Shown here: piece by piece, positions 1 through 39,958 of the stretch
Layout: each line of letters starts with the position of its first letter
Position numbering within the stretch: the first letter of the stretch is position 1
IMG/VR virus record: IMGVR_UViG_3300037882_005016
Coordinates: 1 to 39,958 of that record
Strand: one strand, 5' to 3'
DNA length: 39,958 nucleotides
Source of the DNA: a virus
The notes under the pieces: model-generated
What the model saw: only the letters and a program-made list of their open reading frames with translations
Database searches by the model: none
Told to the model about the DNA's origin: nothing
Translations under genes and position numbers: made by a program

Positions 1-99
1 ACTTTTTTTAATGGTGGAAACTGTGCGTTTAAAAGACTAGACTCAAGCTCTTTATTATCGTTAGTTAAATAAATCGGCTCAGTTAGAAAAGGATTATCT
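1..99. repeat. 99-bp terminal direct repeat, identical to 39860..39958 (circular-assembly overlap)
   Basis: Read base by base: window positions 1-99 equal 39860-39958 exactly. An ORF continues in frame across the junction. Confidence 0.95.
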
Positions 100-22711: not shown

Positions 22712-23344
22712 ATGAAAAATTCAATCTTAATATTAGTAATAGTTTTAATAGGTCTATCTGGTTGTAAAGAGGGTTCTACTGATCAAAAACAGATATCATC
22801 ACAGCCCGATGATTCTAACTTAACAATAGATAAAGAATATATTGAGGCCGCTATTTCTGAGCTCTCTTTTAGTAAAGTCAGAAATAAAATATATGCTATT
22901 AACAATATCCCAGTTGAGAACGTGTCTTTATATTTTACTCAGTTCGATTTTGGTGACTACTACTTAGAGACTTATAATCAGAAGTTTCATTTTTATAATA
23001 CTCAAGCTCAGCCTGAGTTGTATCGTGAGACTAATGCGGTTGGAAACTTTCAAACGACTGGTTGGGATAAGAGTAATTATTCTATTCAAACTCAGACGAT
23101 CGATGGTCTTCAGGTTGATTCAGCGACAGCAACGGTTTACTCAACTGTTGATAAAAACGGTAATGGTTCAGAAATATTTAATGAAAACTTTGAGTTTGTC
23201 TTAATCGATGGCTTAATCTTTAAAAAGAGTATCTACGTAGGAGCTGAAGTGTGGGTTCTTTATAACTTGTTTGATTCTAGACTTGAGTCCTACCCAAGTG
23301 TGATGAATATCATTGGTCTTAATCGAACTTGGATGCAAGACTAA
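22712..23344 (+). CDS. Lipoprotein of unknown function
   Basis: Signal peptide with a canonical lipobox: MKNSILILVIVLIGLSGC. AAGGAG lies 8 nt upstream of the ATG. Confidence 0.75.
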   Translation: MKNSILILVIVLIGLSGCKEGSTDQKQISSQPDDSNLTIDKEYIEAAISELSFSKVRNKIYAINNIPVENVSLYFTQFDFGDYYLETYNQKFHFYNTQAQPELYRETNAVGNFQTTGWDKSNYSIQTQTIDGLQVDSATATVYSTVDKNGNGSEIFNENFEFVLIDGLIFKKSIYVGAEVWVLYNLFDSRLESYPSVMNIIGLNRTWMQD

Positions 23345-23493
23345 TTGTTTTCAATCGAGTCCCAGGTGTTATCTAAAATATCTTTAATCTCCTGAACCGT
23401 GAGCCCGAACATGAAAGAGATTTCAATCGGGCAGTAACCTTTTTTATAAAGATCAAGTATTTTTTCTATCGTGTATTCATCAATATTTTTCAT
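23341..23493 (-). CDS. Small helix-turn-helix protein (50 aa), below the track cutoff
   Basis: Hand translation: MKNIDEYTIEKILDLYKKGYCPIEISFMFGLTVQEIKDILDNTWDSIENN*. It has an HTH-like core and AAGGAA upstream. Its stop overlaps the lipoprotein stop. Confidence 0.45.
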   Translation of the reverse strand: MKNIDEYTIEKILDLYKKGYCPIEISFMFGLTVQEIKDILDNTWDSIENN

Positions 23494-23524
23494 TTATTTA
23501 AATTCCTTTGTTATAATTCTAGAC

Positions 23525-23755
23525 ATGGACTTAAAAGAATACACTCCACCAATTGATCCAGCCTTAAGAGAAAGTTTTGAGCGCATTTTATGTGAAGTCA
23601 ATAGTCTAGACTGGCTCATTTCAGAGCTGAATAAGGAAATAGACCTATGTCCAGACCTGAAGAGCTATTATATTTCCATAATTAATGAGGCTCGAGCTAT
23701 GCGAGATGAGAAATCAAAAACGATAAAAGAGATGTTTAAAAGTATTGCGAACTAA
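23525..23755 (+). CDS. Hypothetical protein (76 aa), possibly translated from a leaderless mRNA
   Basis: ATG at 23525 (MDLKEYTPP...). TATAAT at 23512-23517 ends 7 nt before the A of the ATG, and there is no SD. The track's GTG start at 23471 would overlap the divergent HTH ORF. Confidence 0.45.
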   Translation: MDLKEYTPPIDPALRESFERILCEVNSLDWLISELNKEIDLCPDLKSYYISIINEARAMRDEKSKTIKEMFKSIAN

Positions 23756-23767
23756 AAAAAAGACAGA

Positions 23768-23783
23768 GCTGGATCTCTCCAGC
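23768..23783 (-). terminator. Hairpin GCTGGA-tctc-TCCAGC, followed on the minus strand by TCTGTC + T8
   Basis: A 6-bp GC-rich stem between convergent genes. The T-run is on the minus-strand side, so it likely terminates the Ig-like gene transcript. Confidence 0.5.
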
Positions 23784-23833
23784 CCCTGTAACAGATAGTT
23801 GTAACTGCTTATCTATTCATAGAATTTATTTAA

Positions 23834-24334
23834 TTAAATATCCGTTGGTTGTCCAGCAGATAAATTAATTACTTCAGCGTCTCCGGCTAAGAGCTCAACG
23901 TCAAGTTCGCCAACGATTTCTTTAACGCCCTCGCCTAGATCAGCATCTGCTTTTACTTGAACTTTAAATGCACCAACTGTCCCCATCGGTTTAATTGTTG
24001 CGCTCATTCCGTCTTCAGCAATAATAAGTTCAGCAAGGCTTGCATCAGTAATGGCCCACTGTGGGAGACCGTCAACTTTAGCAGGGTTTCCTAACTTATC
24101 AGTGATCGTGATTGATACCGGAAGTGTTTGTGTGACTTTTAAAAACATATTCTTTACTCCTTTTTTTTCCCCATCAATTGTTGCATAAAAATTTATGCGA
24201 GCCGCTTGGACGGGTTTTACAAGCTTCTCTATATTTTCTAATTTTTTTATAATAACGAAACAGGCGAACGATAAACCGAGAGCAAGTGTGAAAATAAAAA
24301 GAACTATCGCGAGTTGACCGACAAATAGAGCCAT
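23834..24334 (-). CDS. Ig-like (Big_2-type) domain protein with N-terminal transmembrane anchor; an internal start is possible
   Basis: N-terminal TM segment LAIVLFIFTLALGLSFACFVII. The C-terminal roughly 105 aa (MFLKVTQTLPVSITITDKLGNPAKVDG...VKADADLGEGV...) are typical of small phage Ig-like proteins. The internal ATG at 24148 has a perfect AAGGAG 8 nt upstream. Confidence 0.6.
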   Translation of the reverse strand: MALFVGQLAIVLFIFTLALGLSFACFVIIKKLENIEKLVKPVQAARINFYATIDGEKKGVKNMFLKVTQTLPVSITITDKLGNPAKVDGLPQWAITDASLAELIIAEDGMSATIKPMGTVGAFKVQVKADADLGEGVKEIVGELDVELLAGDAEVINLSAGQPTDI

Positions 24335-24454
24335 AAGTACACTCCTGTTTTTTTGTTTTATTCTTTTTTATTATAAGACAAAAATATGTATTTCAATCAG
24401 TTATTAGTTCAAATCAAGTCTATAGTAAATATAAAAGAAATAATTAAGACAAAA

Positions 24455-24478
24455 GGCCTGTCTAGAAATAAACAGGTC
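24455..24478 (-). terminator. Candidate rho-independent terminator after the GH114-like gene
   Basis: Minus strand: GACCTGT-ttatttctag-ACAGGCC (one mismatch), followed by TTTTGTCTT. Confidence 0.4.
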
Positions 24479-24485
24479 TAATTAA

Positions 24486-25340
24486 TTAATATTTACACGC
24501 TTGATAGTCACCGTCAAGAGAGAGGTCCTCATCAAAAAAGGTGAGACTAAATTTTCTTTTTTTAGCCTTATCACATAGAGTTTGAGAGTAGCCTCTATAT
24601 TCTGCCTGAAAGGCTGGCTTATTATTTTTAGTATAATCTAGATATCCATCGCATTCATCATACTGATCGCATTGCTCTATAAGAACGCCGTCGTAATATT
24701 TCATTACATCTTTAGTTAGATCAGGACCATTTTTCATTAGAACAACCATGCCCTTCATGTGTGAGTATAAGCTAAGCATTTTTAAATATTCTACGTTCTG
24801 AGAATGAGAGATTTTGAATCCAGTATCATTATAAGCGCTGTCAACATTATCAAACTCTAGTCCAGAGCAGCCCTTTTTTTCAGCAAGATCAATTCTTTTT
24901 TTCATAAAGTTTTTTAAATCATTATTTGTAATATCAACCCAAAGTTCATCCCAGCCGTCCATTTTTTTCCCCTTAGCTTTTGCTGGAAAACTTTTTGCAT
25001 CTGGTCTCCAGGCTTCATAAGATCCGGCGGAGAAATAGCATATAATAACTTTGCCTTTTTTCTTTTGATCTTTAATCCATGTCTCTGAAGTATTAAATAA
25101 ATCGATATCAATCAGATCTTCTTTAGGACTTTCTGGCGTATTCTCTATATTCCACTGCCAACTCATGAGTGGTTTTAATTTCTTTCTCGTCTGCTCGAGT
25201 AATTTATCAGAAAAGTTTTGATCATTCTCATCTGTGACATCAATCTCTTCTTTTGGCTCCTCGCCGAGATCGACTTCTGGAAGTTTTGGAATAGTTGTAC
25301 AGGCGGTAGCGAGTAGAATAATTAATAAAAGTTTCTTCAT
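24486..25340 (-). CDS. Exported GH114-like glycoside hydrolase (endo-alpha-1,4-polygalactosaminidase / PelA-hydrolase-like)
   Basis: Signal or lipoprotein-type N-terminus MKKLLLIILLATAC. Blocks are WQWNI, VIICYFSAGSYEAWRPD, GWDELWVDI, KGCSGLEFDNVDSY.. and VVLMKNG, in GH114 order. Confidence 0.7.
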   Translation of the reverse strand: MKKLLLIILLATACTTIPKLPEVDLGEEPKEEIDVTDENDQNFSDKLLEQTRKKLKPLMSWQWNIENTPESPKEDLIDIDLFNTSETWIKDQKKKGKVIICYFSAGSYEAWRPDAKSFPAKAKGKKMDGWDELWVDITNNDLKNFMKKRIDLAEKKGCSGLEFDNVDSAYNDTGFKISHSQNVEYLKMLSLYSHMKGMVVLMKNGPDLTKDVMKYYDGVLIEQCDQYDECDGYLDYTKNNKPAFQAEYRGYSQTLCDKAKKRKFSLTFFDEDLSLDGDYQACKY

Positions 25341-25352
25341 TTTTTTTATTCC

Positions 25353-26594
25353 TTAATTTTGTTTAACTGTTTCAAGGGCATCGATAAGTCCCGCGCCTTG
25401 TTTGTCTTTTGATAATTTTAAATCAATTGTTTTAATAGTTTTATTGTTTTTTTTATGAATCAGAGCGAAAAGTCCGGTTACATGAGGGGCCGCCATCGAT
25501 GTGCCGTCAAGTTTTTCATATCCTCCACCCGATTTAAGAGAGAGAACACCTTCACCTGGAGCAGTAAAGTCAACTGTTTCTCCACTATTTGAGAAATATG
25601 CAAGATTATTTTTCTCATCTATTGCTGAAACTGTGTAAACATTTTTATAGTTAAAAGCGCCAGGCCAGCCTACTTTTCCTGATTCATTTCCTGCGGCGAT
25701 AACAACGATAATATTTTTATCGGCTGCTTTTTTAACAGCATCGGTTATTAGTTTATCCTCTCCGCCTTCAAACGGTGATCCTAGAGATAGATTTATTACA
25801 TCTGCTTTCTGTTTAATACATTCAAAAATTCCCTCAGCAATCCAGTCTCCCCATCCAACGCCTTCTTTATCAAGAACTTTAGATGCGAATATCTTTGCTT
25901 GCGAAACGCCGACAACTCCGCGTCCATTTTTTATTGCAGAGATAGTCCCCGCCACGTGTGTCCCGTGACCATTGTCGTCCTGAAAATCAGAGTTATTTTC
26001 AACAAAGCTTTTTCCACCAATGATTTTATCTTTAATATCCTCGTGATTTTTATCTATCCCAGTATCAACGACACACACGACGGCGTCTTTTCCATTATAG
26101 ATTTTCTGTGCCTCTAGAGCTTTTACTTTTTCTATTCCCCAAGGAATTACTTCTTTAGATCCTGTTTCTTCATCTTTAGGTGTATCAACTATTGGTGAAA
26201 TAAAATCATCTTTACATTCTAGTTTCGGATCATTTTCTTCACAATAGATACAGTTTTCAATTCCCTCACAAGGATTATCAAAAATATTATCATCTGGACT
26301 TTCAACTTCTTTTTTTTCACATCCAGAAAGAAAACCAACTTTAAATTTCTTTGGCTTATATAAAGTCATGCCATTAATAGTTGAGCCCTCTTTTAATTCT
26401 TTATTTGATTCAAAAGAATAGCCATCAATATTTTCTAATTTTTTAATCTTCTCGCCAGGTATTTGAGAGATGGAAATTATTGATTTATTATTTTCATTTT
26501 TTAAGAGAACGTATCTTTCATTTTCTTTTTTATTATTTAAAAAACTTAATAAAGAAAACAAGGCTATTGGTATTGCTATTAATTTTAGATTCAT
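25353..26594 (-). CDS. Secreted subtilisin-like serine protease (peptidase S8)
   Basis: Catalytic triad blocks are VCVVDTGID, HGTHVAGTI and GTSMAAPHVTG, plus oxyanion AAGNES. It has an N-terminal signal/anchor and a roughly 140-aa pro-region. Confidence 0.93.
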   Translation of the reverse strand: MNLKLIAIPIALFSLLSFLNNKKENERYVLLKNENNKSIISISQIPGEKIKKLENIDGYSFESNKELKEGSTINGMTLYKPKKFKVGFLSGCEKKEVESPDDNIFDNPCEGIENCIYCEENDPKLECKDDFISPIVDTPKDEETGSKEVIPWGIEKVKALEAQKIYNGKDAVVCVVDTGIDKNHEDIKDKIIGGKSFVENNSDFQDDNGHGTHVAGTISAIKNGRGVVGVSQAKIFASKVLDKEGVGWGDWIAEGIFECIKQKADVINLSLGSPFEGGEDKLITDAVKKAADKNIIVVIAAGNESGKVGWPGAFNYKNVYTVSAIDEKNNLAYFSNSGETVDFTAPGEGVLSLKSGGGYEKLDGTSMAAPHVTGLFALIHKKNNKTIKTIDLKLSKDKQGAGLIDALETVKQN

Positions 26595-26597
26595 TTC

Positions 26598-26981
26598 TTA
26601 TTCCTTTGTCATTTTATCAATTTTCTCAATCGTCCGGTCCCAAGAGTGAACATATTCTGAACATTTTTTAGTATCTTTACAAATATTTATTATAAATTTT
26701 TTTATTTCTGCCCATGATTCTGCTGGCAAATGAAGCATTGTTGGTCTTAATTCCCACCATGTTTTAGATTTTGATCCATTAAAAGAGTGTTTATGAGTCT
26801 CATTAATTTTAAACTCTCTATCTGATAGAGTATAGATACAATAGCCCTCATCGAGTGATAACTCTACACAGATTGGCTCATCGGGCACCGTGTGTTGACA
26901 GCTAAGATTTAAGCTTAACAAGGTTGCGAAAAGAATCAATAAGTAGATCTTTTGATTTTTGAATTTCTTCTGTATTTCCAT
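26598..26981 (-). CDS. Small exported Cys-rich protein
   Basis: Signal peptide KIYLLILFATLLSLNLSC and 7 Cys. It lies directly upstream of the protease (3-nt gap). Confidence 0.55.
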   Translation of the reverse strand: MEIQKKFKNQKIYLLILFATLLSLNLSCQHTVPDEPICVELSLDEGYCIYTLSDREFKINETHKHSFNGSKSKTWWELRPTMLHLPAESWAEIKKFIINICKDTKKCSEYVHSWDRTIEKIDKMTKE

Positions 26982-27255
26982 TTTTCCCTACTTCAATATT
27001 TTTAATTATAGCATCATTAAATTCTTTTGCTTGCTTATCTGTTCTCGTATCAATGTAATAAAAAAATAATTGAGTCTCTGTTTCTTTAATAAGAAACTTT
27101 AAGATCATAAAAACAAAAAACATGATTATGCTTATTATAGGGCTTTTTAAAAAACCAAGAAAATATAGAGCGGAAGATAAATAATTTCTAATTGAACCCA
27201 TTCCAAGGTCAATAAAGATTTCTTTTAATGAATCAACGTACTGATCCCTAGTCAT
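26902..27255 (-). CDS. Membrane protein, first gene of the exported-protein cassette
   Basis: 117 aa with two hydrophobic segments. GGTGG lies 10 nt upstream. It overlaps the next ORF by 80 nt. Confidence 0.45.
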   Translation of the reverse strand: MTRDQYVDSLKEIFIDLGMGSIRNYLSSALYFLGFLKSPIISIIMFFVFMILKFLIKETETQLFFYYIDTRTDKQAKEFNDAIIKNIEVGKNGNTEEIQKSKDLLIDSFRNLVKLKS

Positions 27256-27395
27256 GATTAATTAGCCACCAAAAATAGTAAATAAAAAAACTAAAATTTA
27301 AGGCGCAAAATAAATGAAATAAAATGTTATAGGCATCCATGCTCGTATAAAAGGATAAGTATTTTTTTATATTCTCGTCAAGGGAGATAAAAATA

Positions 27396-27423
27396 TCAGG
27401 ACCTAATTTTAACTAGGCCCTGA
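27396..27423. promoter_or_regulatory. 28-bp imperfect palindrome in the divergent control region (operator or hairpin)
   Basis: TCAGG-A-CCTA attttaac TAGG-C-CCTGA. This gives 9 paired positions with one mismatch, and on the minus strand it is followed by TATTTTTAT. Confidence 0.4.
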
Positions 27424-27683
27424 CAAGCAAACAAGTAACTAGGAGTATATGTTAAACAATAATAAAGATTTAAAAATTCTTAAATTGCGGCAACAATATT
27501 AAAGAAATTCTAGTCTTTTTTTATCGAGAGAATATACAGCTTTTAATTTATAAAATATGACTTAATAAGTAAATACTATAAAGTGGTGTAATTAGTATAA
27601 TAACGCTTCGCTCTATTTGTTTATTTTATATGCACTCTGATATATAAATTTAATAGCAACAAATAAACTGAGGAGATTTTTTT

Positions 27684-27941
27684 ATGCATCCAGATCTTAA
27701 GTCGGATATCCTTTTAATTTTATCAAAATGTGAGAGTCTTTTATTGAACGCTATCAATGAAATGCACTCTGAATTATCGGCTGAAAATAAAGAAGAGTTT
27801 AAAAACATGATTAAGGGTTTTGTTAAAATCAATAATAATTACTTTAGAGAGCAGCTTGATATCTATGACAACGATCTTATAGAAAAAATGTCAGCATCTT
27901 TTGAGAAGTCTCTAGATAAAAAGACGATTATTCAACTCTAA
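27684..27941 (+). CDS. Hypothetical early protein
   Basis: 85-aa ORF with a GAGGAG RBS 8 nt upstream. It is the first gene of the plus-strand block. Confidence 0.6.
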   Translation: MHPDLKSDILLILSKCESLLLNAINEMHSELSAENKEEFKNMIKGFVKINNNYFREQLDIYDNDLIEKMSASFEKSLDKKTIIQL

Positions 27942-27946
27942 TTAAT

Positions 27947-28123
27947 ATGAGTTTAAATAATAATGACAGGGTTTATCTTAACTCAAAATATTTAATTGAG
28001 TTTCGTTCTCTTTTTTATAGTCGTTTAAAGAAAATTTCTTATTCTAGTCATGGTGAGGAGCGGGAATATTTAAAAGAATACCCGAAATTCTCAGGAGTAT
28101 TCATCTCTGTTTTACAGAAATAA
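27947..28123 (+). CDS. Hypothetical small protein (58 aa), below the track cutoff
   Basis: Hand translation: MSLNNNDRVYLNSKYLIEFRSLFYSRLKKISYSSHGEEREYLKEYPKFSGVFISVLQK*. It fills the gap between flanking genes. Confidence 0.35.
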   Translation: MSLNNNDRVYLNSKYLIEFRSLFYSRLKKISYSSHGEEREYLKEYPKFSGVFISVLQK

Positions 28124-28174
28124 TAAATAAAATGAACGAAGAAGCTAATCGTTTAGAAAAAGGATACAAAAAAA

Positions 28175-29032
28175 ATGAATAATATTTTTGACCCGCTTGA
28201 GGATCAAGCAGACCTTGCAATACAGATGATCTATCCGGCGTTAAGAGTTTTAGCAAGGGATAAGTCAACGAGTGGCCTAGAGTCTATTTTAAGGGCCTCA
28301 TCTTCTGGGAAATGCTCTCGAGCTCTATGGTACAAAAAAAATAACTATGAAGAAGAGACTATAAATCCTAGAGCTATAATTAATTTTGCTCTCGGTGATT
28401 TAACAGAGCATCTTTATAAAAACCTTGTCCGCGAAAACATGGTTGGCCCTTTAAAATTATATAAAGAATTAGTTCTAGGAAAAGAGACCGGTGAATTTTA
28501 CTCTCAAGGCAGAATGTTTAAGGCCTATGAACAGGAAACTTGGTCCTTTGATCTAGACTATCTTGGCGAAACACAGAAAGTTACGGCTCATGCTGATGGT
28601 TATGGCTTAAGAAATGATGGCGTTTGGGAATTATTTGATTTTAAATCATCGTCAAATTTCGGATTTATGTCCTTTTTAAAAGACGGTCCAGTTGATTATC
28701 TACCTCAAGCGCATACGCTGATGATGACAAACGAGGCTCGAGAGTTAAATATAAAAGAGTTTCGTTTTTATTATTTAAAAAAAGATACTGGGCACATAGC
28801 GAGTAGGCTTATAAAATATGATAAAGAAATAGAGAAGAAAGTAATTAATAATTTTAAAGAAGCTATAGGAATAAATCGCCCCAAGATTCCTTACTCGCCG
28901 TTAATTGATAAGAAATTAGGCAAAGTTCTACCCTGGCAGTGCTCTTACTGTGGATTTAAAGATCATTGTTTTAAATATAAAACCGAGATTGTTTCTGGTA
29001 GACAAAAAAACGTGGTTAGCTCTCTTCTTTAA
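28175..29032 (+). CDS. PD-(D/E)XK nuclease, Cas4/RecB-like with a 4-Cys cluster
   Basis: N-terminal SSSGKCSRALWY, the core HADGYGL...VWELFDFKSSS (D...E-x-K), QAHTLMM, and C-terminal CSYCGFKDHC. Confidence 0.7.
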   Translation: MNNIFDPLEDQADLAIQMIYPALRVLARDKSTSGLESILRASSSGKCSRALWYKKNNYEEETINPRAIINFALGDLTEHLYKNLVRENMVGPLKLYKELVLGKETGEFYSQGRMFKAYEQETWSFDLDYLGETQKVTAHADGYGLRNDGVWELFDFKSSSNFGFMSFLKDGPVDYLPQAHTLMMTNEARELNIKEFRFYYLKKDTGHIASRLIKYDKEIEKKVINNFKEAIGINRPKIPYSPLIDKKLGKVLPWQCSYCGFKDHCFKYKTEIVSGRQKNVVSSLL

Positions 29033-29225
29033 GAAGGATGATTTCCCAAGTTTTTGATTTAATATCATTCACAGTAAATAGACCAGGCTTAAGTTCATAG
29101 TTCCCTGATTTTAATATAAAAACATATCTATGAATTTCTTTTAAATCTGTTCTATAAATTCCAACAACTTTCATTAAATTTATTGGGTAATCTTCACTTT
29201 TTTTTATCGCTGATTCTAGATCCAT
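29016..29225 (-). CDS. Questionable ORF (69 aa)
   Basis: Open frame only, with no SD. It overlaps the nuclease 3' end by 17 nt. Confidence 0.25.
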   Translation of the reverse strand: MDLESAIKKSEDYPINLMKVVGIYRTDLKEIHRYVFILKSGNYELKPGLFTVNDIKSKTWEIILLKEES

Positions 29226-29304
29226 TTTATAATTATATTCTTTTTTTTTATTTTAATAAATAGACGGAGTTCGAGCTTTTTAAAAAGATCTGCTTAATTA
29301 AAAA

Positions 29305-29665
29305 CAAGGCGTCGCTCAAGGGGGCGTTAGAGCCCCAACGCTCCTTTAAAAAAATCTTATAAATAAGCACCGTTTTAGGCGCAGGAGTGCTAAATACGTA
29401 GTCAGCTTTCTTGTTTTATTCAAGCTCCAGCTAAACTACAACTCGTGGTCCTCGTGAGTGTATGCTCTTCCAAAGGCATCATTTATAGCCTTCCTTAAGG
29501 GACCAGTCCTAGATGGATAGTGATTCGGTTTTATTCGAGGATTACTCCCTCACCGCCTCAGGGCTATCGTCTACTTGAGATTCGTCTATAAACCGTGCTT
29601 ACTGCCAATGATTGATTTATAGATGGGCACTCAAGAACCCCTAGGCAGTTACCTTAAGGAAGTAA
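29305..29665. ncRNA. Candidate structured RNA (or structured DNA element such as an origin); strand and family unknown
   Basis: No ORF of 60 aa or more in any frame across 29226-29816. The core is locally GC-enriched. Nested inverted repeats: 29490-29500/29652-29662 (11 bp), 29508-29512/29641-29645, 29516-29520/29564-29568, 29574-29579/29630-29635, 29585-29592/29616-29623, plus a GC hairpin at 29321-29336. Confidence 0.45.
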
Positions 29666-29816
29666 TTAGTACAGATTTTAAACGAATGTAAATCATTAAA
29701 AATTGACGACTAGTTTAATTCTATAACGCAGCGAGAAATATATTTACTTTAGACCGCTTATATAGAATAAATCTTTTAAGCAAAACAAGGGTATTAAAAT
29801 AGGGGTTAAAAAAACG

Positions 29817-29918
29817 ATGATTGAAAATGATTTTATATTCATCTCTCAAGACGTGATGTTTTATATTTTTATAATCATTGCATTAATAATCTTTATTTTA
29901 AGTTTACTTGATAATTAA
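29817..29918 (+). CDS. Possible 33-aa hydrophobic peptide
   Basis: Hand translation: MIENDFIFISQDVMFYIFIIIALIIFILSLLDN*. AGGGG lies 11 nt upstream, just before the next gene. Confidence 0.3.
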   Translation: MIENDFIFISQDVMFYIFIIIALIIFILSLLDN

Positions 29919-29936
29919 TAAAAAGGAGTATTAAAA

Positions 29937-30278
29937 ATGATTAAACTTGCAGGTCTTTACTTAAAGAAAAAAGAAAATGGTGAACCCTATTTTACAGGAT
30001 CACCGTCTAAAGATTCTGGTCATAATTATTTAATCTTTAAGAATACTAAAAAAACTTCGGACCAGGCCCCCGATTATATTTTATTGATCGCTGAAAAGAA
30101 TCAGCAAAAACCACAGAATCAACAAAATAAAAATAATAACTATCAAACGAATCAGAAAAGAAATAACTATTCTAATAATAAAAATAATAATAACTTTTCA
30201 TCTGACGACTCCTGGCCTGAGCAAGAAGTTGCCCCATCAACAGAGTTTGATAAAAGTAACGACGATCTTCCTTTTTAA
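29937..30278 (+). CDS. Protein with SSB-type C-terminal tip (DDLPF), a Q/N-rich linker and a small non-OB N-domain (DUF736-like)
   Basis: The AAGGAG RBS is strong. The N-domain is MIKLAGLYLKKKENGEPYFTG...APDYILLIAEK. The linker is QQKPQNQQNKNNNYQTNQKRNNYSNNKNNNN. The C-terminus ...SNDDLPF resembles the bacterial SSB DDDIPF tip. Confidence 0.6.
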   Translation: MIKLAGLYLKKKENGEPYFTGSPSKDSGHNYLIFKNTKKTSDQAPDYILLIAEKNQQKPQNQQNKNNNYQTNQKRNNYSNNKNNNNFSSDDSWPEQEVAPSTEFDKSNDDLPF

Positions 30279-30289
30279 GGAAGCATATT

Positions 30290-30541
30290 ATGACAGATGA
30301 TAAATTCGATGAACTAATAACTAAAATTGGTCGCTCTAATATTAGACCGCTAATCGATGATTCCTGCTCAATTTATTTATCTCTAATAAAAGATAGATAC
30401 AAAATTGAAAAGACAGAGCTTAAAAAGTTAGCAGAGCTGTATTTCTTAATTTCTTTAATTCCTTTCACGATCGATGAGGATTTCTTTTCTCTAGTTGAAG
30501 AAGAGAAATATAAATATTTCATTGATCAAGGGATAATTTAA
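30290..30541 (+). CDS. Hypothetical early protein
   Basis: 83-aa ORF, tightly packed in the plus-strand operon. Confidence 0.5.
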   Translation: MTDDKFDELITKIGRSNIRPLIDDSCSIYLSLIKDRYKIEKTELKKLAELYFLISLIPFTIDEDFFSLVEEEKYKYFIDQGII

Positions 30542-30556
30542 TATGAACGAGGAAAA

Positions 30557-30742
30557 ATGTCTGAACCAAGTATAAACATACAAGCATGGATATGTCCTTT
30601 TTGTATAGACGATCACTCGTCAGGTCGTGATTGCAAGCAAGAGGATTTGAAAAAGAGGATAATAAAACTTTTGATTTCAAAAATATCAGGAGTTACTGAA
30701 AGAGAAGTTGAGAATTTTAACATGATGATTGAGATGTTATGA
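30557..30742 (+). CDS. Hypothetical small protein with a CPFC...C motif
   Basis: 61-aa ORF with GAGGAAAA upstream. Confidence 0.45.
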   Translation: MSEPSINIQAWICPFCIDDHSSGRDCKQEDLKKRIIKLLISKISGVTEREVENFNMMIEML

Positions 30743-30770
30743 TTTATAAAGAAGAAAAGAGATAATAAAA

Positions 30771-31022
30771 ATGATGCTAGAATATAAACTTTTAATAGAC
30801 TCAGAAATAAACATTATTAATTTAATGAATTTATGGAAGAAAAACAGGTCTTTACACATTGAAGAAGGGAGAGACTATAATGAGTATTCTAACCTCGTAA
30901 TAGAAACAATAAGACCAAGCGATACGAAATGTGATAAGGATTATGACGACACGATCAGGAATAAAGAAGAAGTAATTGGATTATCCATAAAGCTAGATAG
31001 ACCATTTAAAATTTACACTTAA
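30771..31022 (+). CDS. Hypothetical early protein
   Basis: 83-aa ORF in the plus-strand operon. Confidence 0.45.
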   Translation: MMLEYKLLIDSEINIINLMNLWKKNRSLHIEEGRDYNEYSNLVIETIRPSDTKCDKDYDDTIRNKEEVIGLSIKLDRPFKIYT

Positions 31023-31104
31023 AAAATAACATGAAAAAAAATATTCTTGTAATTTACAATACGCATACGACGCCCTAATAGCCGAGGCAGAGAAGTTGGC
31101 TGAT

Positions 31105-31263
31105 ATGCTAAATCTAACTTTAAACTATTTACATTTCAGATCCGACGATTTAGTTGGGGATGATTGCATTGGCGATGGAAAATTGACGGCTACTTTAAAC
31201 AATAGAATTGGTGAAATTATAAAAGCCCTAGATTCATGGGCCAAGTTTAAGGAGAGAATCTGA
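31105..31263 (+). CDS. Possible small protein (52 aa), below the track cutoff
   Basis: Hand translation: MLNLTLNYLHFRSDDLVGDDCIGDGKLTATLNNRIGEIIKALDSWAKFKERI*. Its TGA overlaps the next ATG (TGATG). Confidence 0.35.
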   Translation: MLNLTLNYLHFRSDDLVGDDCIGDGKLTATLNNRIGEIIKALDSWAKFKERI

Positions 31264-31583
31264 TGGTAATTAAATATGACGATTGGATTAAAAAAGCCAA
31301 AGATCTGTACGGTGAAAACTCGGATAATTGGGAGTTTGTTTGTCCAGTGTGTAAGATAAAAACAAAAGCAAAAGAATGGCGAGAGGCTAAGCAAGAGGGC
31401 ATGCTTGCTTTTTCTTGCATAGGGAGAGCGGTGGGTGCAAAAATAAATGCTTTTGAAGAGGGAAAAGGACCTTGCAATTATGCTGGTGGTGGCTTATTTG
31501 CGCTCAACCCGATTAAGATCGTAAAAGACGATGGTAGTAGTATGAATGTTTTTGATTTTTCAATTGAACAAATAACCTCCTAG
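31263..31583 (+). CDS. VVA0879-like small Cys-containing protein (unknown function)
   Basis: The WEFVCPVC...SCIGR...GPCNYAGGGLF pattern matches my recollection of the VVA0879 family. AAGGAGAG is upstream. Confidence 0.5.
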   Translation: MVIKYDDWIKKAKDLYGENSDNWEFVCPVCKIKTKAKEWREAKQEGMLAFSCIGRAVGAKINAFEEGKGPCNYAGGGLFALNPIKIVKDDGSSMNVFDFSIEQITS

Positions 31584-31591
31584 GAGAACAA

Positions 31592-31894
31592 ATGAACACA
31601 CATGAATTAAAAATATGGCCAGTGCATTTTAAAAACGTAATGAGCGGAACTAAAACATTTGAGATAAGAAAAAACGATAGAGCCTTTCAAAAGGGGGACG
31701 CGGTAGTTTTAAAAGAATATAGGCCAGACACAAAAGACGAATACATTCACGGTGATGATTTTATTGATTCAGCAATCGTAAAAAAAGTGATTGGGTTTAC
31801 TGGAAATACTGTAACTTTTAAAATTGGTGACGTTTATCCCATAGATGCTGAAAGAGTTGTGTTTAGCTTGTTAAGAATAACCGCAGAGGAGTGA
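31592..31894 (+). CDS. DUF3850 / ASCH-like (PUA-fold) protein
   Basis: HELKIWPVHFKNVMSGTKTFEIRKNDRAFQKGDAVVLKEY...TGNTVTFKIGDVY matches the DUF3850 pattern. The RBS is AGGAGAA. Confidence 0.7.
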   Translation: MNTHELKIWPVHFKNVMSGTKTFEIRKNDRAFQKGDAVVLKEYRPDTKDEYIHGDDFIDSAIVKKVIGFTGNTVTFKIGDVYPIDAERVVFSLLRITAEE

Positions 31895-32118
31895 TTATGG
31901 AAAAAGAATATTATAATTTTAGAGATCATGGCTTTGAGACTGAAGAAACAATAGTTAAATTTAAAGAATTTTATTTTTGTAAAAGTGAAGGCAGATACAT
32001 TGAGTGTGTAGGCGACAGTTATTACATTATAAATCTTAATCGATTGAAAAAAATATTAGTTATAGACAATGAGGACATAGTCTTAATTGATGGTCTGTGG
32101 GGAAAGTTTTTCAAATGA
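31891..32118 (+). CDS. Hypothetical early protein
   Basis: 75-aa ORF overlapping the upstream stop by 4 nt. Confidence 0.5.
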   Translation: MIMEKEYYNFRDHGFETEETIVKFKEFYFCKSEGRYIECVGDSYYIINLNRLKKILVIDNEDIVLIDGLWGKFFK

Positions 32119-32387
32119 CCAACTTTAAATCCAAGATAGAGAATGCGATTGAAAAAGCTGCTGAAGAACACGCAACGGGTGTATATGACAAGTTCGCGGG
32201 ATCTCATATAAGCTATTGTTGGAAAGAAATGAAAGACACCTACATTAGCGGTGCTAATTTTCTGCTGCCTGTTTTGTTGAAGGCTATTGAGCAGAGAAAT
32301 TGGGCATTAAACAATGCTGATGTAGTTCCAGCTAAAAACAAAGATACAGATATTATCAGCGCAAACAAATATCTGCTAAGTTTTTAG
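32115..32387 (+). CDS. Hypothetical early protein
   Basis: I prefer the ATG at 32115, which forms an ATGA overlap with the upstream stop. The track uses a GTG at 32097. Confidence 0.5.
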   Translation: MTNFKSKIENAIEKAAEEHATGVYDKFAGSHISYCWKEMKDTYISGANFLLPVLLKAIEQRNWALNNADVVPAKNKDTDIISANKYLLSF

Positions 32388-32402
32388 AGAAGTGGAAATA
32401 GA

Positions 32403-32693
32403 ATGAAATATATAAGATTAAAAGATTCTAAAAATAAAGATGCTATAGTTACAAAAAGAAAATCATCAATACCTTGCCATGTGATACATGATCCAATATC
32501 TAAAATCACTAAGTTGGGATATCTAGTTGAAGTCATGGGAATGGATTTTGATCCTAATATTATTGATAAACCACACAATCCTTTTAAACCTAGACATATC
32601 TTTAATCTTGTAGTTATGGATTCATATATTGAATATGAAGAGGCTATGTTAGATGATCAAAATAATTTAGATAACGAAGAGGTAAAAAAATGA
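32403..32693 (+). CDS. Hypothetical early protein
   Basis: 96-aa ORF. Its stop overlaps the next start. Confidence 0.5.
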   Translation: MKYIRLKDSKNKDAIVTKRKSSIPCHVIHDPISKITKLGYLVEVMGMDFDPNIIDKPHNPFKPRHIFNLVVMDSYIEYEEAMLDDQNNLDNEEVKK

Positions 32694-32902
32694 GTTTTAT
32701 AAAAGATATTATTAGAGATTTAAAAGACGAGGCGTGGCCACCAGAGACAACTCTGAAACAAAAAAATAAATATAGATGGAAAATTGTAGGACTAATGTCT
32801 ATTCTATCGGCAGCTCTTTTTTTTATTCACCCTGTTGCATCAATTTTGCCAGCACTTGTTGCCATTAGAAAAATATGGATTATTCTAAAAGACAATGGAT
32901 AA
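32690..32902 (+). CDS. Small membrane protein
   Basis: 70 aa with a hydrophobic hairpin: IVGLMSILSAALFFIHPVASILPALVAI. Confidence 0.5.
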   Translation: MSFIKDIIRDLKDEAWPPETTLKQKNKYRWKIVGLMSILSAALFFIHPVASILPALVAIRKIWIILKDNG

Positions 32903-33254
32903 TAGAAAAGAATTGGCATTAAAAAAGATTTCTTATAATACAACCATCGGGATTCACAATGAGTCGAGTGCGCTATATCATTTACAAAAATGTAATATTG
33001 TATATTTAGAAGCTCCAAAATCCTCACGCGGCTGGGCGATGCTAATCTATGACCACAGAGATGATTTAAATAGACAACTTCGCTACGAAACTTATTTCTG
33101 TAACATATCTTTAATTGAAAAAGAGCTCTTCAAGTATTATGAAAAGCTAAAATATATTCACGGCAATAAAAACTACTATTTTAAAAATGAGCTTTTAAAA
33201 AAATATCAAGAATGGAAAGCCCATCTTCTCACTGTCTCAGTAAAAGCTCTTTAG
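32895..33254 (+). CDS. Hypothetical early protein, last gene of the plus block
   Basis: 119-aa ORF. Its stop overlaps the stop of the convergent endolysin gene. Confidence 0.5.
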   Translation: MDNRKELALKKISYNTTIGIHNESSALYHLQKCNIVYLEAPKSSRGWAMLIYDHRDDLNRQLRYETYFCNISLIEKELFKYYEKLKYIHGNKNYYFKNELLKKYQEWKAHLLTVSVKAL

Positions 33255-34441
33255 CTTTTTGGTAAATAGTAACCTAAGACTCTATCGTTATCATAGGTCG
33301 AGATATTTACTTCATTATTTTGATTACCACCCAAGACATAGTGTGAACCGTTTGCTATTCTATCAAAAAAAGCTACGTGACCTGAAGCTGAGCTTGGGGT
33401 TCCTCTCCAAAAAACGACGATGCAACCCTTTATAGGCTTTTTAATTTTTCTATAATAAGTAGAGCTCATAAAACTTCGAGCCATACCAGATTTTGTTGAC
33501 CTATAACCGCTCATAACACAAACGGCGTTGGCAAAGCCTGCGCACCAAGGAGTCTCGTCATCATCAAAATCAAGACCTGCCTTCTCCCAAAAATCTAATA
33601 TATCAGGATTATGACTTGATCCAGGATACTCACCTACGCCAATATATTTTTTAGCCTTATCATAAAGAATTAAACCAATCGAAGAGTCATCATTTTCTGG
33701 CAGCGGTTGAACAATAATATTTCCATCATTGTTTTGTTCTATATAATCTATATTTAAACCCTGAAGCTTATAGCCAAGCTTAATAAAAGCTAACATATAA
33801 GCAGCACAGCCAATTTGTTTTGATACCGCATCTGGATCGTAAAATCCATCGCCTGTATATTTTCCTTTTATATATTTATTAGTATAAGACCATAAAAAAG
33901 GAGACGGGACACCCTTTTTTTTATAACCAAAACCGTTCCACTTTTCAAAAAGTTCTAAGATATTATCTATTGACCACACTTCAGTCTGATCAATCTTATC
34001 GTACTTTAATGCATCAATTGCAGATTCTGTAAAACTAAAAGGTGGAGTTCCTTTTTTAGGTCTCCCCTGTGGAACCTGAACGGTGTAATCATTTAATGAA
34101 TCCCCGTTATGTAAATGAGTCTTAAAATTACTATCTGATTCCATGCGGTGTAAAATAGCAACGACCCAATAAGGGACACCAGTTTCAAGTTCTATTTCTT
34201 TGTATCTATCAAAAAGAGACGCTAACTTCTCCGCTTGACCCAAGACAAACTCTTCGTTTTTTAGAGAGGCATCTTTAAAGACAAGCCAGTAGGGTGAAAG
34301 CTTATCTTCAATAATAAACTTTTCCTGTGAGTTTGGATCATCAGTGACAACCTCATCAATAACAGGCTTATCTGGATCTTTAGGTTTTTGTTTAAAAAAA
34401 TCAACTAAGTATTTTAATATTTTTTCTATAAGCGCCAGCAT
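33251..34441 (-). CDS. Two-domain peptidoglycan hydrolase (endolysin): lysozyme-like N-region plus C-terminal TIGR02594-type NlpC/P60-like domain
   Basis: The C-terminus GSSHNPDILDFW...DDETPWCAGFANAV...GCIVVFWRG...GHVAFF...VLGGNQNNEV is the TIGR02594 pattern. The N-region has HRMES...WNGFGYKKKGVPSPFLWSYTN. It is downstream of a holin-like gene. Confidence 0.75.
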   Translation of the reverse strand: MLALIEKILKYLVDFFKQKPKDPDKPVIDEVVTDDPNSQEKFIIEDKLSPYWLVFKDASLKNEEFVLGQAEKLASLFDRYKEIELETGVPYWVVAILHRMESDSNFKTHLHNGDSLNDYTVQVPQGRPKKGTPPFSFTESAIDALKYDKIDQTEVWSIDNILELFEKWNGFGYKKKGVPSPFLWSYTNKYIKGKYTGDGFYDPDAVSKQIGCAAYMLAFIKLGYKLQGLNIDYIEQNNDGNIIVQPLPENDDSSIGLILYDKAKKYIGVGEYPGSSHNPDILDFWEKAGLDFDDDETPWCAGFANAVCVMSGYRSTKSGMARSFMSSTYYRKIKKPIKGCIVVFWRGTPSSASGHVAFFDRIANGSHYVLGGNQNNEVNISTYDNDRVLGYYLPKS

Positions 34442-34469: not shown

Positions 34470-34889
34470 CTAATCAATATACGTATATATTTTAAATAAA
34501 GTCTTTTTATCTTTTTTTGACTGAATTTTTTCAATCGACACTTTTGAAAACTTTGAATCGTCAATTTCAAGAGCCTCACAAATCGCATCCTCTGCTATCT
34601 TAAGCCTATTTGAAATATCCTGCTTCTTATCCTCGCCGCTTTTTAAAATCCAATTTTGACAAACTGAGACAACGAGCTCAAATCGATGTCCAATCTTCTT
34701 CTTATAATTAAACTCTTCTTTAAATCTAACTAATATTCTCTTCTCTAATACATTAAGATGAACAAAATTCTTAAAAGACTTTGCGTCAGCCGAAAGAAAT
34801 CTCCTTAAATGAAGTCTTGAGTTAGAATAAGAGCTATTAATAGTCGGTGGAATTCCATCGACCTCAAGACTGAAAATCTGATCTCTCAA
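34470..34889 (-). CDS. rusA: RusA-like Holliday junction resolvase
   Basis: GIPPTINSSYS...FLSADAKSFKNFV...QDISNRLKIAEDAICEALEIDDSKF fits the RusA pattern (D-x-x-N..K...DA....DD). The start is TTG with AAGGAA 8 nt upstream. Confidence 0.7.
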   Translation of the reverse strand: MRDQIFSLEVDGIPPTINSSYSNSRLHLRRFLSADAKSFKNFVHLNVLEKRILVRFKEEFNYKKKIGHRFELVVSVCQNWILKSGEDKKQDISNRLKIAEDAICEALEIDDSKFSKVSIEKIQSKKDKKTLFKIYTYID

Positions 34890-38800: not shown

Positions 38801-39162
38801 AATATAACAGCGTTCCCAACAGCAGCTGCGGCAGAAGCTGACGCCCCAAGAGCGGCTCCAAGACCAGCGCCCGCGCCAGTTGCAATTAATGCAATAGCAG
38901 CAATTTGAACTATTGTTGTTAATACCTTTCCTTGTTCATTATCTAGGCCGCCCTCGACAACGCTAATAATTGAAAGTCGATCTTCTTTTTTTATAATTAA
39001 ATCTTTAGAAACCATCTTAGGAGAAATACCATTAATTACAACGTGGTAATTTCCTTTTGCATTTAGTTTTTTTAAAATAGTTTTTAACTTAAAAGATCTT
39101 TTATATTCTTTTATTAATCTAGTAGCTTTTAAAGGATGGGGTTTAAATATTATTTTTGCCAA
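35836..39162 (-). CDS. Tail tip / host-specificity protein (lambda gpJ-like) with an N-terminal gpI-like segment
   Basis: 1108 aa, the last gene of the M-L-K set. The first roughly 130 aa are a small domain plus the G/A-rich hydrophobic stretch IAAIALIATGAGAGLGAALGASASAAAAVGNAVILV, as in tail assembly protein I. Confidence 0.8.
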   Translation of the reverse strand: MAKIIFKPHPLKATRLIKEYKRSFKLKTILKKLNAKGNYHVVINGISPKMVSKDLIIKKEDRLSIISVVEGGLDNEQGKVLTTIVQIAAIALIATGAGAGLGAALGASASAAAAVGNAVILVASSLLVLGIRSAIGQQRSLAASSGVEQAQSPTYSLSAAGNSARAYQPMPLVLGNHQIFPDFDSNPYSDFVYGLVGSYTEQTTTSNVSIDITSPAYSNLWSLVSAGQLFDGTNYINLFNSLGLWEVMGNKNSTTTVDYTDTNYIKIIAGTSQVLRPRKPFDVSDGKSVLQKNNIIIRWSFSGTRYFSYSVFYFWYTTLYNPLSSQVANANSLISFLDTNTASYTEVIPGDFNDTNPNLLHQLTRITNYPMLQETFYLEHREPPTQKIVHIFNFGFGDIDYEDLKFTESDLTTYRGFDNSINVYTATSWPVLTYFSGNTLADAGAHPVVATRQGNQVINNDVLPPDNNSWSFPNNYHYKKSPKNTTRIKLFVEGRLFRTSAATGGAVANSVTLTFEYREVGSASWLPLVQGSQYPTSGSSIIFSHASYDPFRAVVSKNVAVGEYEIRYAKVNEDSIDANVVDDISVTEAQFWVSDSTPHVAQNRMVVHVTASAQISGALGRFSAYIKNRCWVWDGSTWNYTFTENPAWWFLYVSRGGFENQVDENMSARPGWLNGYSVNNKRRLFGGGLRDEQIDIEKLKLWALFCDVNNLKFSAVIDQAQNTAEVLTNIASVGRAAITWETGKIGVIFEDPSQPAIALFGPHNIKAGTFSVTYINENLPEEIVCTFMNPDLNWTIDQVSAIRPDFTGNPTNRVTIDLFGVKYKSQAQREANLIAAKQAYQRRQISFTLDAEGLIVSRGDVVLLSHDLTQWGITGRAIKFNISGNVCTSIEFDCDMLGSTYLVLRDLNNNLTYNQGTSNEGLFIFNNPISAISCPFYINDNHDTNSLSSYPESFPHDWMGLADYQSTPGKRIRIVGIQPSGENTFKISATDEDLAMYSHEFQDVTPEPYNPGSYTLVKVRAFNPYIVENKNLLQIIEWESDGAIAFTIQASVNGSSFSPLLKSGSITHYDSRLELNYATGSIVLLKISPFFVGSPQFVEPTEISFVVL

Positions 39163-39539
39163 AGATAGTAGCCCTCTATACTTAATCCACCACGATCAAT
39201 ATCCTTAATCTTCTGTCTGACAACGGATCTACAAAGCTTAAAACTATGAAGAACATACCACTCGTTATTAATAAAACAAGCAAGACCTATATGGTGCATT
39301 TCTTGATTTCCGCTCATTAAGACACAACAGCCGTCAGTCGGATTATGTATTTTTTCTTCTTGAAAAAAGTTATAAAATTCTTTTTTTAATAAATTACTCT
39401 GATCTTTTGCCTTGCCGTTATTCTTTGGAAAAACTATTTTTTTATTAAAAACTTCTTTTCCAACAACCTCAACAAGCTCAGCACAATTCATTTCTCGATA
39501 ATCAATTCCTACATATTTATCTGACCAATGATTAAACAT
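39150..39539 (-). CDS. Tail-tip NlpC/P60 (C40) peptidase-like protein (lambda gpK C-domain / GTA gp14-like)
   Basis: 129 aa with catalytic-type Cys in YREMNCAELV and His in MHHIGLA. It lies between the gpL-like and J-like genes, with overlaps at both ends. Confidence 0.65.
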   Translation of the reverse strand: MFNHWSDKYVGIDYREMNCAELVEVVGKEVFNKKIVFPKNNGKAKDQSNLLKKEFYNFFQEEKIHNPTDGCCVLMSGNQEMHHIGLACFINNEWYVLHSFKLCRSVVRQKIKDIDRGGLSIEGYYLWQK

Positions 39540-39958
39540 AAATTCCAGGACTTTCTTGAGCTGAATAAATTACTGGAGTCATGGACTTATTTAATAGATC
39601 TTCATAAGATAATGTGCCGTCAACTGTTAAAGAGTTTATTGAGATATTTATAAATTTTGTTTTTATTTCGTATTCAACAAAGTCAGGATTAGATCTAACT
39701 ATTACATATGTCGTAATAAAAGTATCCTTAGCTCCATGAGATTTCTCAATCCACTGTGATAAGTCACGGCCAACATTACAAATAGATAGACTTGCCGTAG
39801 GAACTTGACCCTCTTTTTCTTCTGGAAATGTAAAATCGAAACTTAAAGATCTAAAAGTTACTTTTTTTAATGGTGGAAACTGTGCGTTTAAAAGACTAGA
39901 CTCAAGCTCTTTATTATCGTTAGTTAAATAAATCGGCTCAGTTAGAAAAGGATTATCT
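39532..39958 (-). CDS. Minor tail protein (gpL position / DUF1833-like), C-terminal part; 39860-39958 duplicates 1-99
   Basis: Hand translation ...VTFRSLSFDFTFPEEKEGQVPTASLSICNVGRDLSQWIEKSHGAKDTF...SAQESPGIYV*. The TAA at 39534-39532 overlaps the ATG of the next gene (ATGTTTAA). The F-x-F-x-P..E and L-x-I-x-N-V pattern is reminiscent of DUF1833. Confidence 0.6.
   Translation of the reverse strand, partial: DNPFLTEPIYLTNDNKELESSLLNAQFPPLKKVTFRSLSFDFTFPEEKEGQVPTASLSICNVGRDLSQWIEKSHGAKDTFITTYVIVRSNPDFVEYEIKTKFINISINSLTVDGTLSYEDLLNKSMTPVIYSAQESPGIYV
39860..39958. repeat. Second copy of the 99-bp terminal direct repeat
   Basis: Identical to 1..99. Confidence 0.95.

Follow-up and report, generated by a model that had tools for sequence, protein, structure and literature searches.

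Among phage-encoded structured RNAs, the phi29-type packaging RNA (pRNA) has about 170 nucleotides (nt) and is built around a helical junction, with its 5′ and 3′ ends paired to close it. The replication origins of Ceduovirus phages are non-coding, are flanked by promoters and give rise to a non-coding RNA; plasmids can replicate from them in the absence of phage proteins (PMC7150918). The defining feature of retron RNAs is a pair of inverted repeats, IRa1 and IRa2, that flank msr and msd and are accompanied by a branching G and an opposing G; phage SSB is sensed by Retron-Eco8 (PMC13402713). Here, we analyzed a non-coding element located between a Cas4-like exonuclease gene and a gene encoding a protein with an SSB-type tail (SSB-tail gene) in the phage genome IMGVR_UViG_3300037882_005016, the whole stretch of which (39,958 bp, 35.2% G+C (GC), complete) is referred to as the window. 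An initial annotation had singled out positions 29226-29816 as free of open reading frames (ORFs), GC-enriched and rich in nested inverted repeats, and had proposed a structured RNA, a leader or a replication origin. As detailed below, the element belongs to a lineage-specific insertion, which we tentatively interpret, with a rough probability of 38%, as an accessory, moron-like cassette whose GC-rich island would act as a structured RNA or form the 5′ structured part of a leftward transcript.

Among 5.8 billion proteins, only four homologues of the Cas4-like protein were found (P0002-P0005, 35-44% identity), and their contigs, together with one further IMG/VR locus, make up the five relative lineages used for comparison. 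In four of the five (L001-4, L005, L006/L012 and L007) the SSB-tail homologue begins at the Cas4 stop codon, and in lineage L011 it comes after Cas4 with one 55-codon ORF in between; at the sole further viral locus reached via Cas4, the two genes lie close together as usual. Their separation in the window is 905 nt. When positions 27256-33260 were compared with the relative loci by tblastx, only Cas4 and the SSB-like N-terminus were found in common. Just ahead of the SSB-tail gene, however, we detected a relic of the Cas4 C-terminus, which resembles the C-terminal residues of the closest homologue, P0002 (Table 1); matches as good as this one occur at 5 of ~80,000 translated genome positions, corresponding to roughly p = 0.002 for this location. 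The relic retains the GGAG (29925-29928) that forms the ribosome-binding site of the SSB-tail gene. The Cas4 frame follows the ancestral one up to GTG GTT (29012-29017) and diverges thereafter; the relic picks up with the GTT at 29902. The last five codons and the stop codon of the present Cas4-like gene (from 29018) come from inserted DNA, and the conserved C-terminal Cys cluster of the protein is kept upstream of the junction.

Taken together, the gene adjacency in the relatives, the Cas4 relic and the lack of any other shared sequence show that the ~887-bp segment was inserted, in this lineage only, at the 3′ end of the Cas4-like gene. Both this and the inclusion in the insert of a leftward 69-codon ORF had been overlooked in the initial annotation. 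Since the insert lacks terminal inverted repeats and is bounded by a 3-nt repeat, its borders point to illegitimate recombination and not to transposition. A transposon or miniature inverted-repeat transposable element was rejected accordingly, as the two ends (29015-29050 versus 29870-29904) share only the 3-nt GTT and no transposase was found. We also discarded a self-splicing intron in the Cas4-like gene: no intron model matched at an E-value of 10, the only ORF lies on the opposite strand, and a TAA stop (29899-29901) immediately precedes the relic codons. An attP site or integration module was set aside given that the window has neither an integrase nor a tRNA-like sequence; in the relatives L005 and L007, an integrase gene lies downstream. 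Finally, there is no second copy of the island in the genome, and a template of a diversity-generating retroelement or an internal repeat was dismissed on that ground.

The absence of any ORF of at least 60 amino acids (aa) from 29226-29816 was confirmed, and the ORF-free stretch extends to 29936 (711 nt); no other such stretch of the genome is longer. Contrary to what had been stated, further long ones exist, at 27256-27649 (394 nt) and at 39540-39958 joined to 1-185 on the circle (~505 nt). Each of the six frames contains 9-16 stops with all three stop codons represented, which rules out a recoded gene. A decayed gene was rejected as well, in view of the stops in all six frames, of a six-frame Pfam scan that was empty at an E-value of 1 and of the relatives, which have no sequence here; the initial annotation had taken homologues with an intact ORF at this place as the sign of such decay, and the homologues were found to lack the segment altogether. 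The hydrophobic 33-codon ORF near the right end of the insert, which overlaps the Cas4 relic in a different frame, is probably spurious; checked as part of a type I toxin-antitoxin system, it was hydrophobic but had the codon score given in Table 1 and no basic residues.

The description of the region as non-coding, GC-enriched and locally well folded therefore stands, and the hand counts of 29 and 13 G+C for the 60-nt lines at 29521 and 29821 are correct. The island is flanked by sequence of 24.7% GC on the left (29033-29299) and 22.6% GC on the right (29663-29936). Its peak 150-nt window is within the top 2.6% of the genome by GC, whereas the 150-nt windows 29113-29262 and 29795-29944 (18-19% GC) rank second and third in the genome for AT content. 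In AT-rich genomes, RNA genes typically stand out as GC islands amid AT-rich DNA.

We then compared the nested helices of the initial annotation, the coordinates of which all match the sequence, with predicted structural ensembles. Two of the proposed elements were recovered with high pairing probabilities. The 11-bp closing helix reached 0.96-0.99 on the plus strand, still 0.97 in a 904-nt context, and 0.52-1.0 on the minus strand, and the CTTGAG/CTCAAG helix stacked on TCTATAAA/TTTATAGA reached 0.98-0.99 whichever strand and sequence context was used. Neither the CCTAG/CTAGG extension nor the GATAG/CTATC arm was recovered (pairing probability at most 0.02), and the minimum-energy fold is a four-way multiloop instead of the three-way junction that had been put forward. 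The hairpin at 29441-29459 fell away too (at most 0.04), and with it the argument that G-U pairs restrict the structure to the plus sense: the minimum-energy fold contains 6 G-U pairs on the plus and 7 on the minus strand, so that the strand cannot be called from G-U pairs. The all-GC hairpin upstream is present as described, but it is the minus strand that prefers it (Table 1). The palindrome CCTTAAGG within the closing helix has genome copies only at 29493 and 29652, against 0.48 copies expected for the genome; an operator pair was considered and rejected, both copies lying at least 265 nt from any start codon and no DNA-binding protein having been identified. The sole other perfect 11-bp inverted repeat of the genome with arms within 200 nt is found at 39383-39451, inside the gene 39150-39539.

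Folding energies were evaluated for the 184-nt domain 29485-29668, which yielded -57.5 kcal/mol (z -2.86) as plus RNA, -59.0 kcal/mol (z -3.51) as minus RNA and a z of -2.27 when folded as DNA. The 323-nt unit 29346-29668 gave a z of -3.05 on the minus and -2.86 on the plus strand. In a genome-wide scan of 180-nt windows, the grid of which was registered on the domain and is therefore biased in its favour, the domain accounted for the second and third lowest energies, and after regression on GC it ranked 2nd and 3rd of 662 strand-windows. These results show that the island folds better than shuffled or neighbouring sequence, at a moderate level. The most over-folded 180-nt window of the genome lies at 30085-30264 on the minus strand (z ~ -6, 14 shuffles), where the SSB-tail gene has its N/Q-rich, low-complexity central part, and its over-folding is probably a by-product of the AAT/ATT repeats found there.

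Table 1. Coordinates of the insertion, of its predicted structural and coding elements and of the flanking genes in the window.
Feature	Position	Strand	Remarks
Cas4-like (RecB-family) exonuclease gene	28175-29032	+	PHROG 1990, E-value 4.5e-20
Lineage-specific insertion	29015/18 to 29901/04		~887 bp; GTT (29015-29017) and GTT (29902-29904) as bounds
69-codon orphan gene	29016-29225	-	ends exactly at the left edge of the insert
Palindrome TATAATTATA	29228-29237		perfect -10 hexamer on both strands; relaxed promoter scan
GC-rich non-coding island	29300-29662		363 nt; 44.6% GC versus 35.2% for the genome
GGGGC-loop-GCCCC hairpin	29321-29336		pairing probability 0.93 (minus), 0.25-0.29 (plus)
Terminator-like hairpin	29382-29367	-	5 bp including one G-U, then interrupted U run to 29346; weak stem
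Hairpin	29395-29436		predicted on both strands (minimum-energy folds)
Closing helix, 5′ arm CTTCCTTAAGG	29490-29500		includes palindrome CCTTAAGG
Two short hairpins	29501-29530, 29537-29551		in place of the CCTAG and GATAG helices of the initial annotation
Long interrupted arm	29552-29649		98 nt; includes 29574-29592 paired with 29616-29635
Closing helix, 3′ arm CCTTAAGGAAG	29652-29662		
AT-rich spacer, right end of the insert	29663-29901		weak promoter-like boxes on both strands
Hydrophobic 33-codon ORF	29817-29918	+	codon score 0.106; no basic residues; not in the source annotation
Cas4 C-terminus relic	29902-29934	+	VYLIINKKEY and stop; 6/10 identical to VYYIKNKTEE of P0002
SSB-tail protein gene	29937-30278	+	C-terminal tail DDLPF; homologous to the gene after Cas4 in relatives

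The 69-codon ORF of the insert has a codon-usage score of 0.39 per codon, compared with 0.15-0.60 for real genes and -0.21 to 0.21 for spurious antisense ORFs, and by this measure it looks like a real gene. Its product has no homologue among 5.8 billion proteins, merely weak matches to repeat proteins among 1.84 billion representatives and no match in Pfam, PHROG or PADLOC, and its AlphaFold model (predicted local distance difference test score of 46) was too poor to use. On the minus strand, the TATAATTATA palindrome stands 6 nt ahead of the ATG of this gene, which lacks a Shine-Dalgarno sequence; the close spacing suggests that its mRNA may be leaderless. A strict sigma-70 scan found no promoter, and relaxed criteria brought up TATAAT boxes at 29228 and 29870, each accompanied by a poor -35 element, the consensus used in both possibly not being that of the host.

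The comparison thus shows that ~887 bp of foreign DNA entered the last codons of the Cas4-like gene, in a manner that points to illegitimate recombination, and parted it from the SSB-tail gene that follows in the relatives. Read in its own, leftward orientation, the insert consists of AT-rich DNA, a stably folding multibranch domain formed by the 11-bp closing helix, the 98-nt long arm and two small hairpins, more hairpins beyond it, the terminator-like hairpin with its U run, a short AT-rich spacer with a TATAAT box and lastly the 69-codon gene ending at the insert edge. In the interpretation that we favor, the island would act either as a discrete structured RNA (~170-320 nt) or as a structured 5′ region of the leftward transcript, a function suggested by its composition, its fold and its position in a compact cassette. 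As it is an insertion, an accessory cassette is favored over a part of the core replication machinery. There is a slight lean towards the minus strand for this RNA, owing to the terminator-like hairpin and U run, to two minus-only hairpins (>0.93), to the slightly stronger minus z and to the orientation shared with the 69-codon gene; the hairpin 29382-29367 has a pairing probability of 0.98 on the minus versus 0.6 on the plus strand. Since no plus-strand terminator was detected between Cas4 and 29937, the island is probably also transcribed in the plus sense, where it would form an untranslated spacer within the rightward early mRNA. A more specific version, in which the island would be a discrete trans-acting RNA of an undescribed family that travels with the 69-aa protein as a small mobile cassette, appears decidedly unlikely; an anti-defence decoy, in the form of a reverse transcriptase-less mimic of retron msr-msd RNA beside an SSB-type gene, would fit as an example by analogy.

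Homologues of the element were sought in several collections, in none of which the window sequence itself gave a self-match. Searching the region by blastn against phages (50,697 records) and plasmids returned no match, four exact 19-24-mers found no homologue among IMG/VR viral contigs, and two patterns run against metagenome contigs of the JGI collection found no homologue either, the two bare 19-mer matches being without extension. A gapped pattern of the closing helix, run against GTDB contigs (185,579 species genomes), returned only unrelated palindromic repeats. Three of the loci concerned contain intergenic palindromic elements of ~160-180 nt, two in one Deltaproteobacteria metagenome-assembled genome (L008 716-897 and L009 3094-3275) and one in a Clostridia metagenome-assembled genome (L010 6082-6242); they are closed by GCGCTTCCTTAAGG...CCTTAAGGAAGCGC, are flanked by GGGGACACCC-type hairpins and, from their sequences, appear to form one repeat family across two phyla. 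As relatives of the CTTCCTTAAGG...CCTTAAGGAAG element they were rejected, the identity being confined to the 22 bases demanded by the search pattern.

Several results weigh against the structured-RNA cassette. Neither in the phage and plasmid nor in the viral, metagenome and genome collections was any homologue of the element found, and no Rfam 15 family matched the whole window at gathering thresholds; this release covers riboswitches, ribozymes, group I/II introns, 6S, RNase P, SRP and C4 as well as GOLLD/ROOL, retron msr, pRNA and others. Slices of 1201 and 421 nt searched at E-values up to 10 gave only chance matches to snoRNAs and leaders (14-20 bits), and ARAGORN found no tRNA or tmRNA in the window. 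Perfect 11-bp inverted repeats with arms within 200 nt number 2 in the genome against 5.6 ± 2.5 expected, so the 11-bp helix alone is not beyond chance. Values of z close to -3 are attained by several coding windows of the same genome, the left part of the region (29226-29490) is not significantly folded (z -1.3 and -0.8), and neither G-U counts nor fold energies discriminate the strands. The terminator-like stem (29382-29346) is weak, and a convincing promoter, as far as consensus scans can tell, is found on neither strand.

In a rival explanation, the island would be inert passenger DNA, left over from a foreign sequence of higher GC content that arrived with the 69-codon gene or in a recombination event, with its folding in the upper tail of chance. 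We regard this explanation as rather doubtful. It agrees with a singleton insertion for which no homologue was found in any collection searched, with a folding excess of only ~3 standard deviations that is alike on both strands, with an 11-bp inverted repeat within chance, with the failure to find a promoter and with an unstructured upstream half. Phage genomes are tightly packed, yet the longest ORF-free stretch of this one is found here; moreover, no remnant of a decayed gene is visible (every frame carries stops, and the six-frame Pfam scan was empty), the domain keeps its 2nd and 3rd places of 662 windows after GC correction, and the abrupt change from the GC island to its extremely AT-rich flanks gives an organised impression. 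An unlikely proposal is a plus-sense cis element of the early operon. Transcription starting at Cas4 or at the TATAAT of 29228 would produce a structured, untranslated spacer or leader that would stabilise, process or translationally tune the SSB-tail mRNA. Plus-sense transcription is indeed expected from the lack of a plus-strand terminator between Cas4 and 29937, and the closing helix persists at 0.97 in the 904-nt plus-sense context. A structured element and an AU-rich tract ahead of an SSB gene also recall the autoregulatory leader of T4 gene 32. As a possible route, 29478-29496 could pair with 29923-29941, a segment that covers the ribosome-binding site and the start codon and to which it is 74% complementary; however, this pairing is one among many weak AT-rich complementarities and no switch is visible in the ensemble. 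Furthermore, the relatives express their SSB-tail gene without such a leader, and the orientation of the cassette is opposite.

Replication offers a different explanation, namely a host-dependent, transcription-activated origin modelled on the c2-type of Lactococcus phages (Ceduovirus), in which the AT-rich flanks would unwind. The claim that no recognisable replication initiator is encoded holds, and none of the window ORFs scanned with Pfam and PHROGs matched an initiator, primase, helicase, polymerase, integrase or reverse transcriptase, which for the initiator, primase and helicase is a non-detection and not proof of absence; by comparison, loci sharing the Cas4/SSB-tail pair (L001-L006) have genes for a RepB-type primase and/or a DnaB-type helicase 1-5 kb downstream. 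The fold, which is equally good on either strand and as DNA, the adjoining flanks of the unwinding type, second and third in AT content, and the neighbouring recombination and SSB genes would also suit an origin. We nevertheless consider it quite unlikely. A recent, lineage-specific insertion in a gene end suits an accessory cassette better than an essential origin. The region has no iterons, no tandem or direct repeat families beyond chance and no DnaA box with one mismatch or fewer in 23155-30980, and thus gives no support for a classical origin; GC skew merely tracks the direction of transcription, no phage record is similar by blastn, and 11-bp arms that lie 151 nt apart would not be expected to extrude as a cruciform. 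By far the least probable reading is an orphan retron-like RNA with a plus-sense msr-msd layout, serving as a fragment of, or a decoy for, a host retron. Topology and size would fit (173 nt in total, with a1/a2 repeats around two short hairpins and a long one after them), as would G29501 directly after the 5′ arm and the location just upstream of the SSB-tail gene. Against it, no reverse transcriptase domain is present in any ORF scanned with Pfam or PHROG, the base opposite the candidate branching G is A29651 and not G, the retron msr models of Rfam do not match even at an E-value of 10, and the likeness is generic to any multibranch RNA.

Regarding the genomic context, 99 bp are identical at both ends of the window (1-99 and 39860-39958), which indicates that the record is a complete, circularly assembled or terminally redundant genome. 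It encodes siphovirus-type structural proteins (TerL, portal, protease, major head protein, tape measure and J-like tail protein); the best match of TerL is 38% identical, and the matched phages infect unrelated hosts. The insertion lies within a block of small, rightward early genes (27684-33254). The SSB-tail protein, SSB in the source annotation, ends in an acidic tip, yet searches of Pfam and PHROGs gave it neither an OB-fold nor an SSB family; no close homologues were found, and its relatives (79-172 aa) have only the N-terminus and the tail in common. A gene for a RusA-type Holliday-junction resolvase (34470-34889, minus strand) is located among leftward tail-side genes, away from the Cas4/SSB-tail recombination genes.

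Two further gene groups, both on the minus strand, stood out. At 24486-26594, genes for a GH114 glycoside hydrolase (E-value 7e-66) and a subtilisin-type S8 protease (E-value 4e-52) adjoin each other, a pair that is uncommon for a phage and may target host exopolysaccharide or envelope. The gene at 20310-21846 matches a PHROG annotated as queuine tRNA-ribosyltransferase and scores 34.8 bits with the Pfam Tet_JBP 2OG-Fe dioxygenase family, just under the cut-off of 34.9; it adjoins a gene with a ParB-like nuclease domain, which hints at a DNA-modification module.

Overall, the element is a real, well-delimited, singleton non-coding insertion whose fold has moderate support and which fits no known family, and as such a candidate and not a discovery. 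If the island is a functional RNA, it would represent a novel structured RNA that a phage gained with a small cassette and add to the few known RNA-based accessory functions of phages; if it is an origin, the phage would have given up a primase-helicase module in exchange for a non-coding origin that depends on the host. In practice, the insertion is of use chiefly as a precise target for deletion and transcript mapping (29018-29901, with the domain at 29490-29662).

Among the described systems, the phi29-type pRNA differs from this element in that the present phage has a TerL terminase and the usual siphovirus portal, that the fold is a four-way multiloop and that the island matches no Rfam family at E-values up to 10; as this is a terminase-type phage, a packaging RNA was rejected. 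Retron msr-msd RNA and the element have in common inverted repeats that close the structure, a G behind the 5′ one, a long hairpin preceded by short ones and a size of ~170 nt, whereas a reverse transcriptase gene, the opposing G and a family match are lacking here. The resemblance to the Ceduovirus c2-type origin with its PE1-T transcript lies in a non-coding sequence of several hundred nt, for which no phage initiator is needed or encoded, in a non-coding transcript the structure of which is thought to be relevant and in sequences that are very diverse between types (PMC7150918). The island differs in having no sequence similarity to these origins, in not lying at a boundary of early and late blocks, in flanking promoters that are not demonstrable and in being an insertion missing from the relatives. 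Compared with phage morons, the insert is mostly non-coding and structured, runs antisense within an operon, has no clear terminator after its gene and entered the end of a coding sequence instead of an intergenic position. Like morons, however, it is a lineage-specific insertion between genes that are adjacent in relatives, has a composition unlike its surroundings and brings its own small gene with a promoter-like box.

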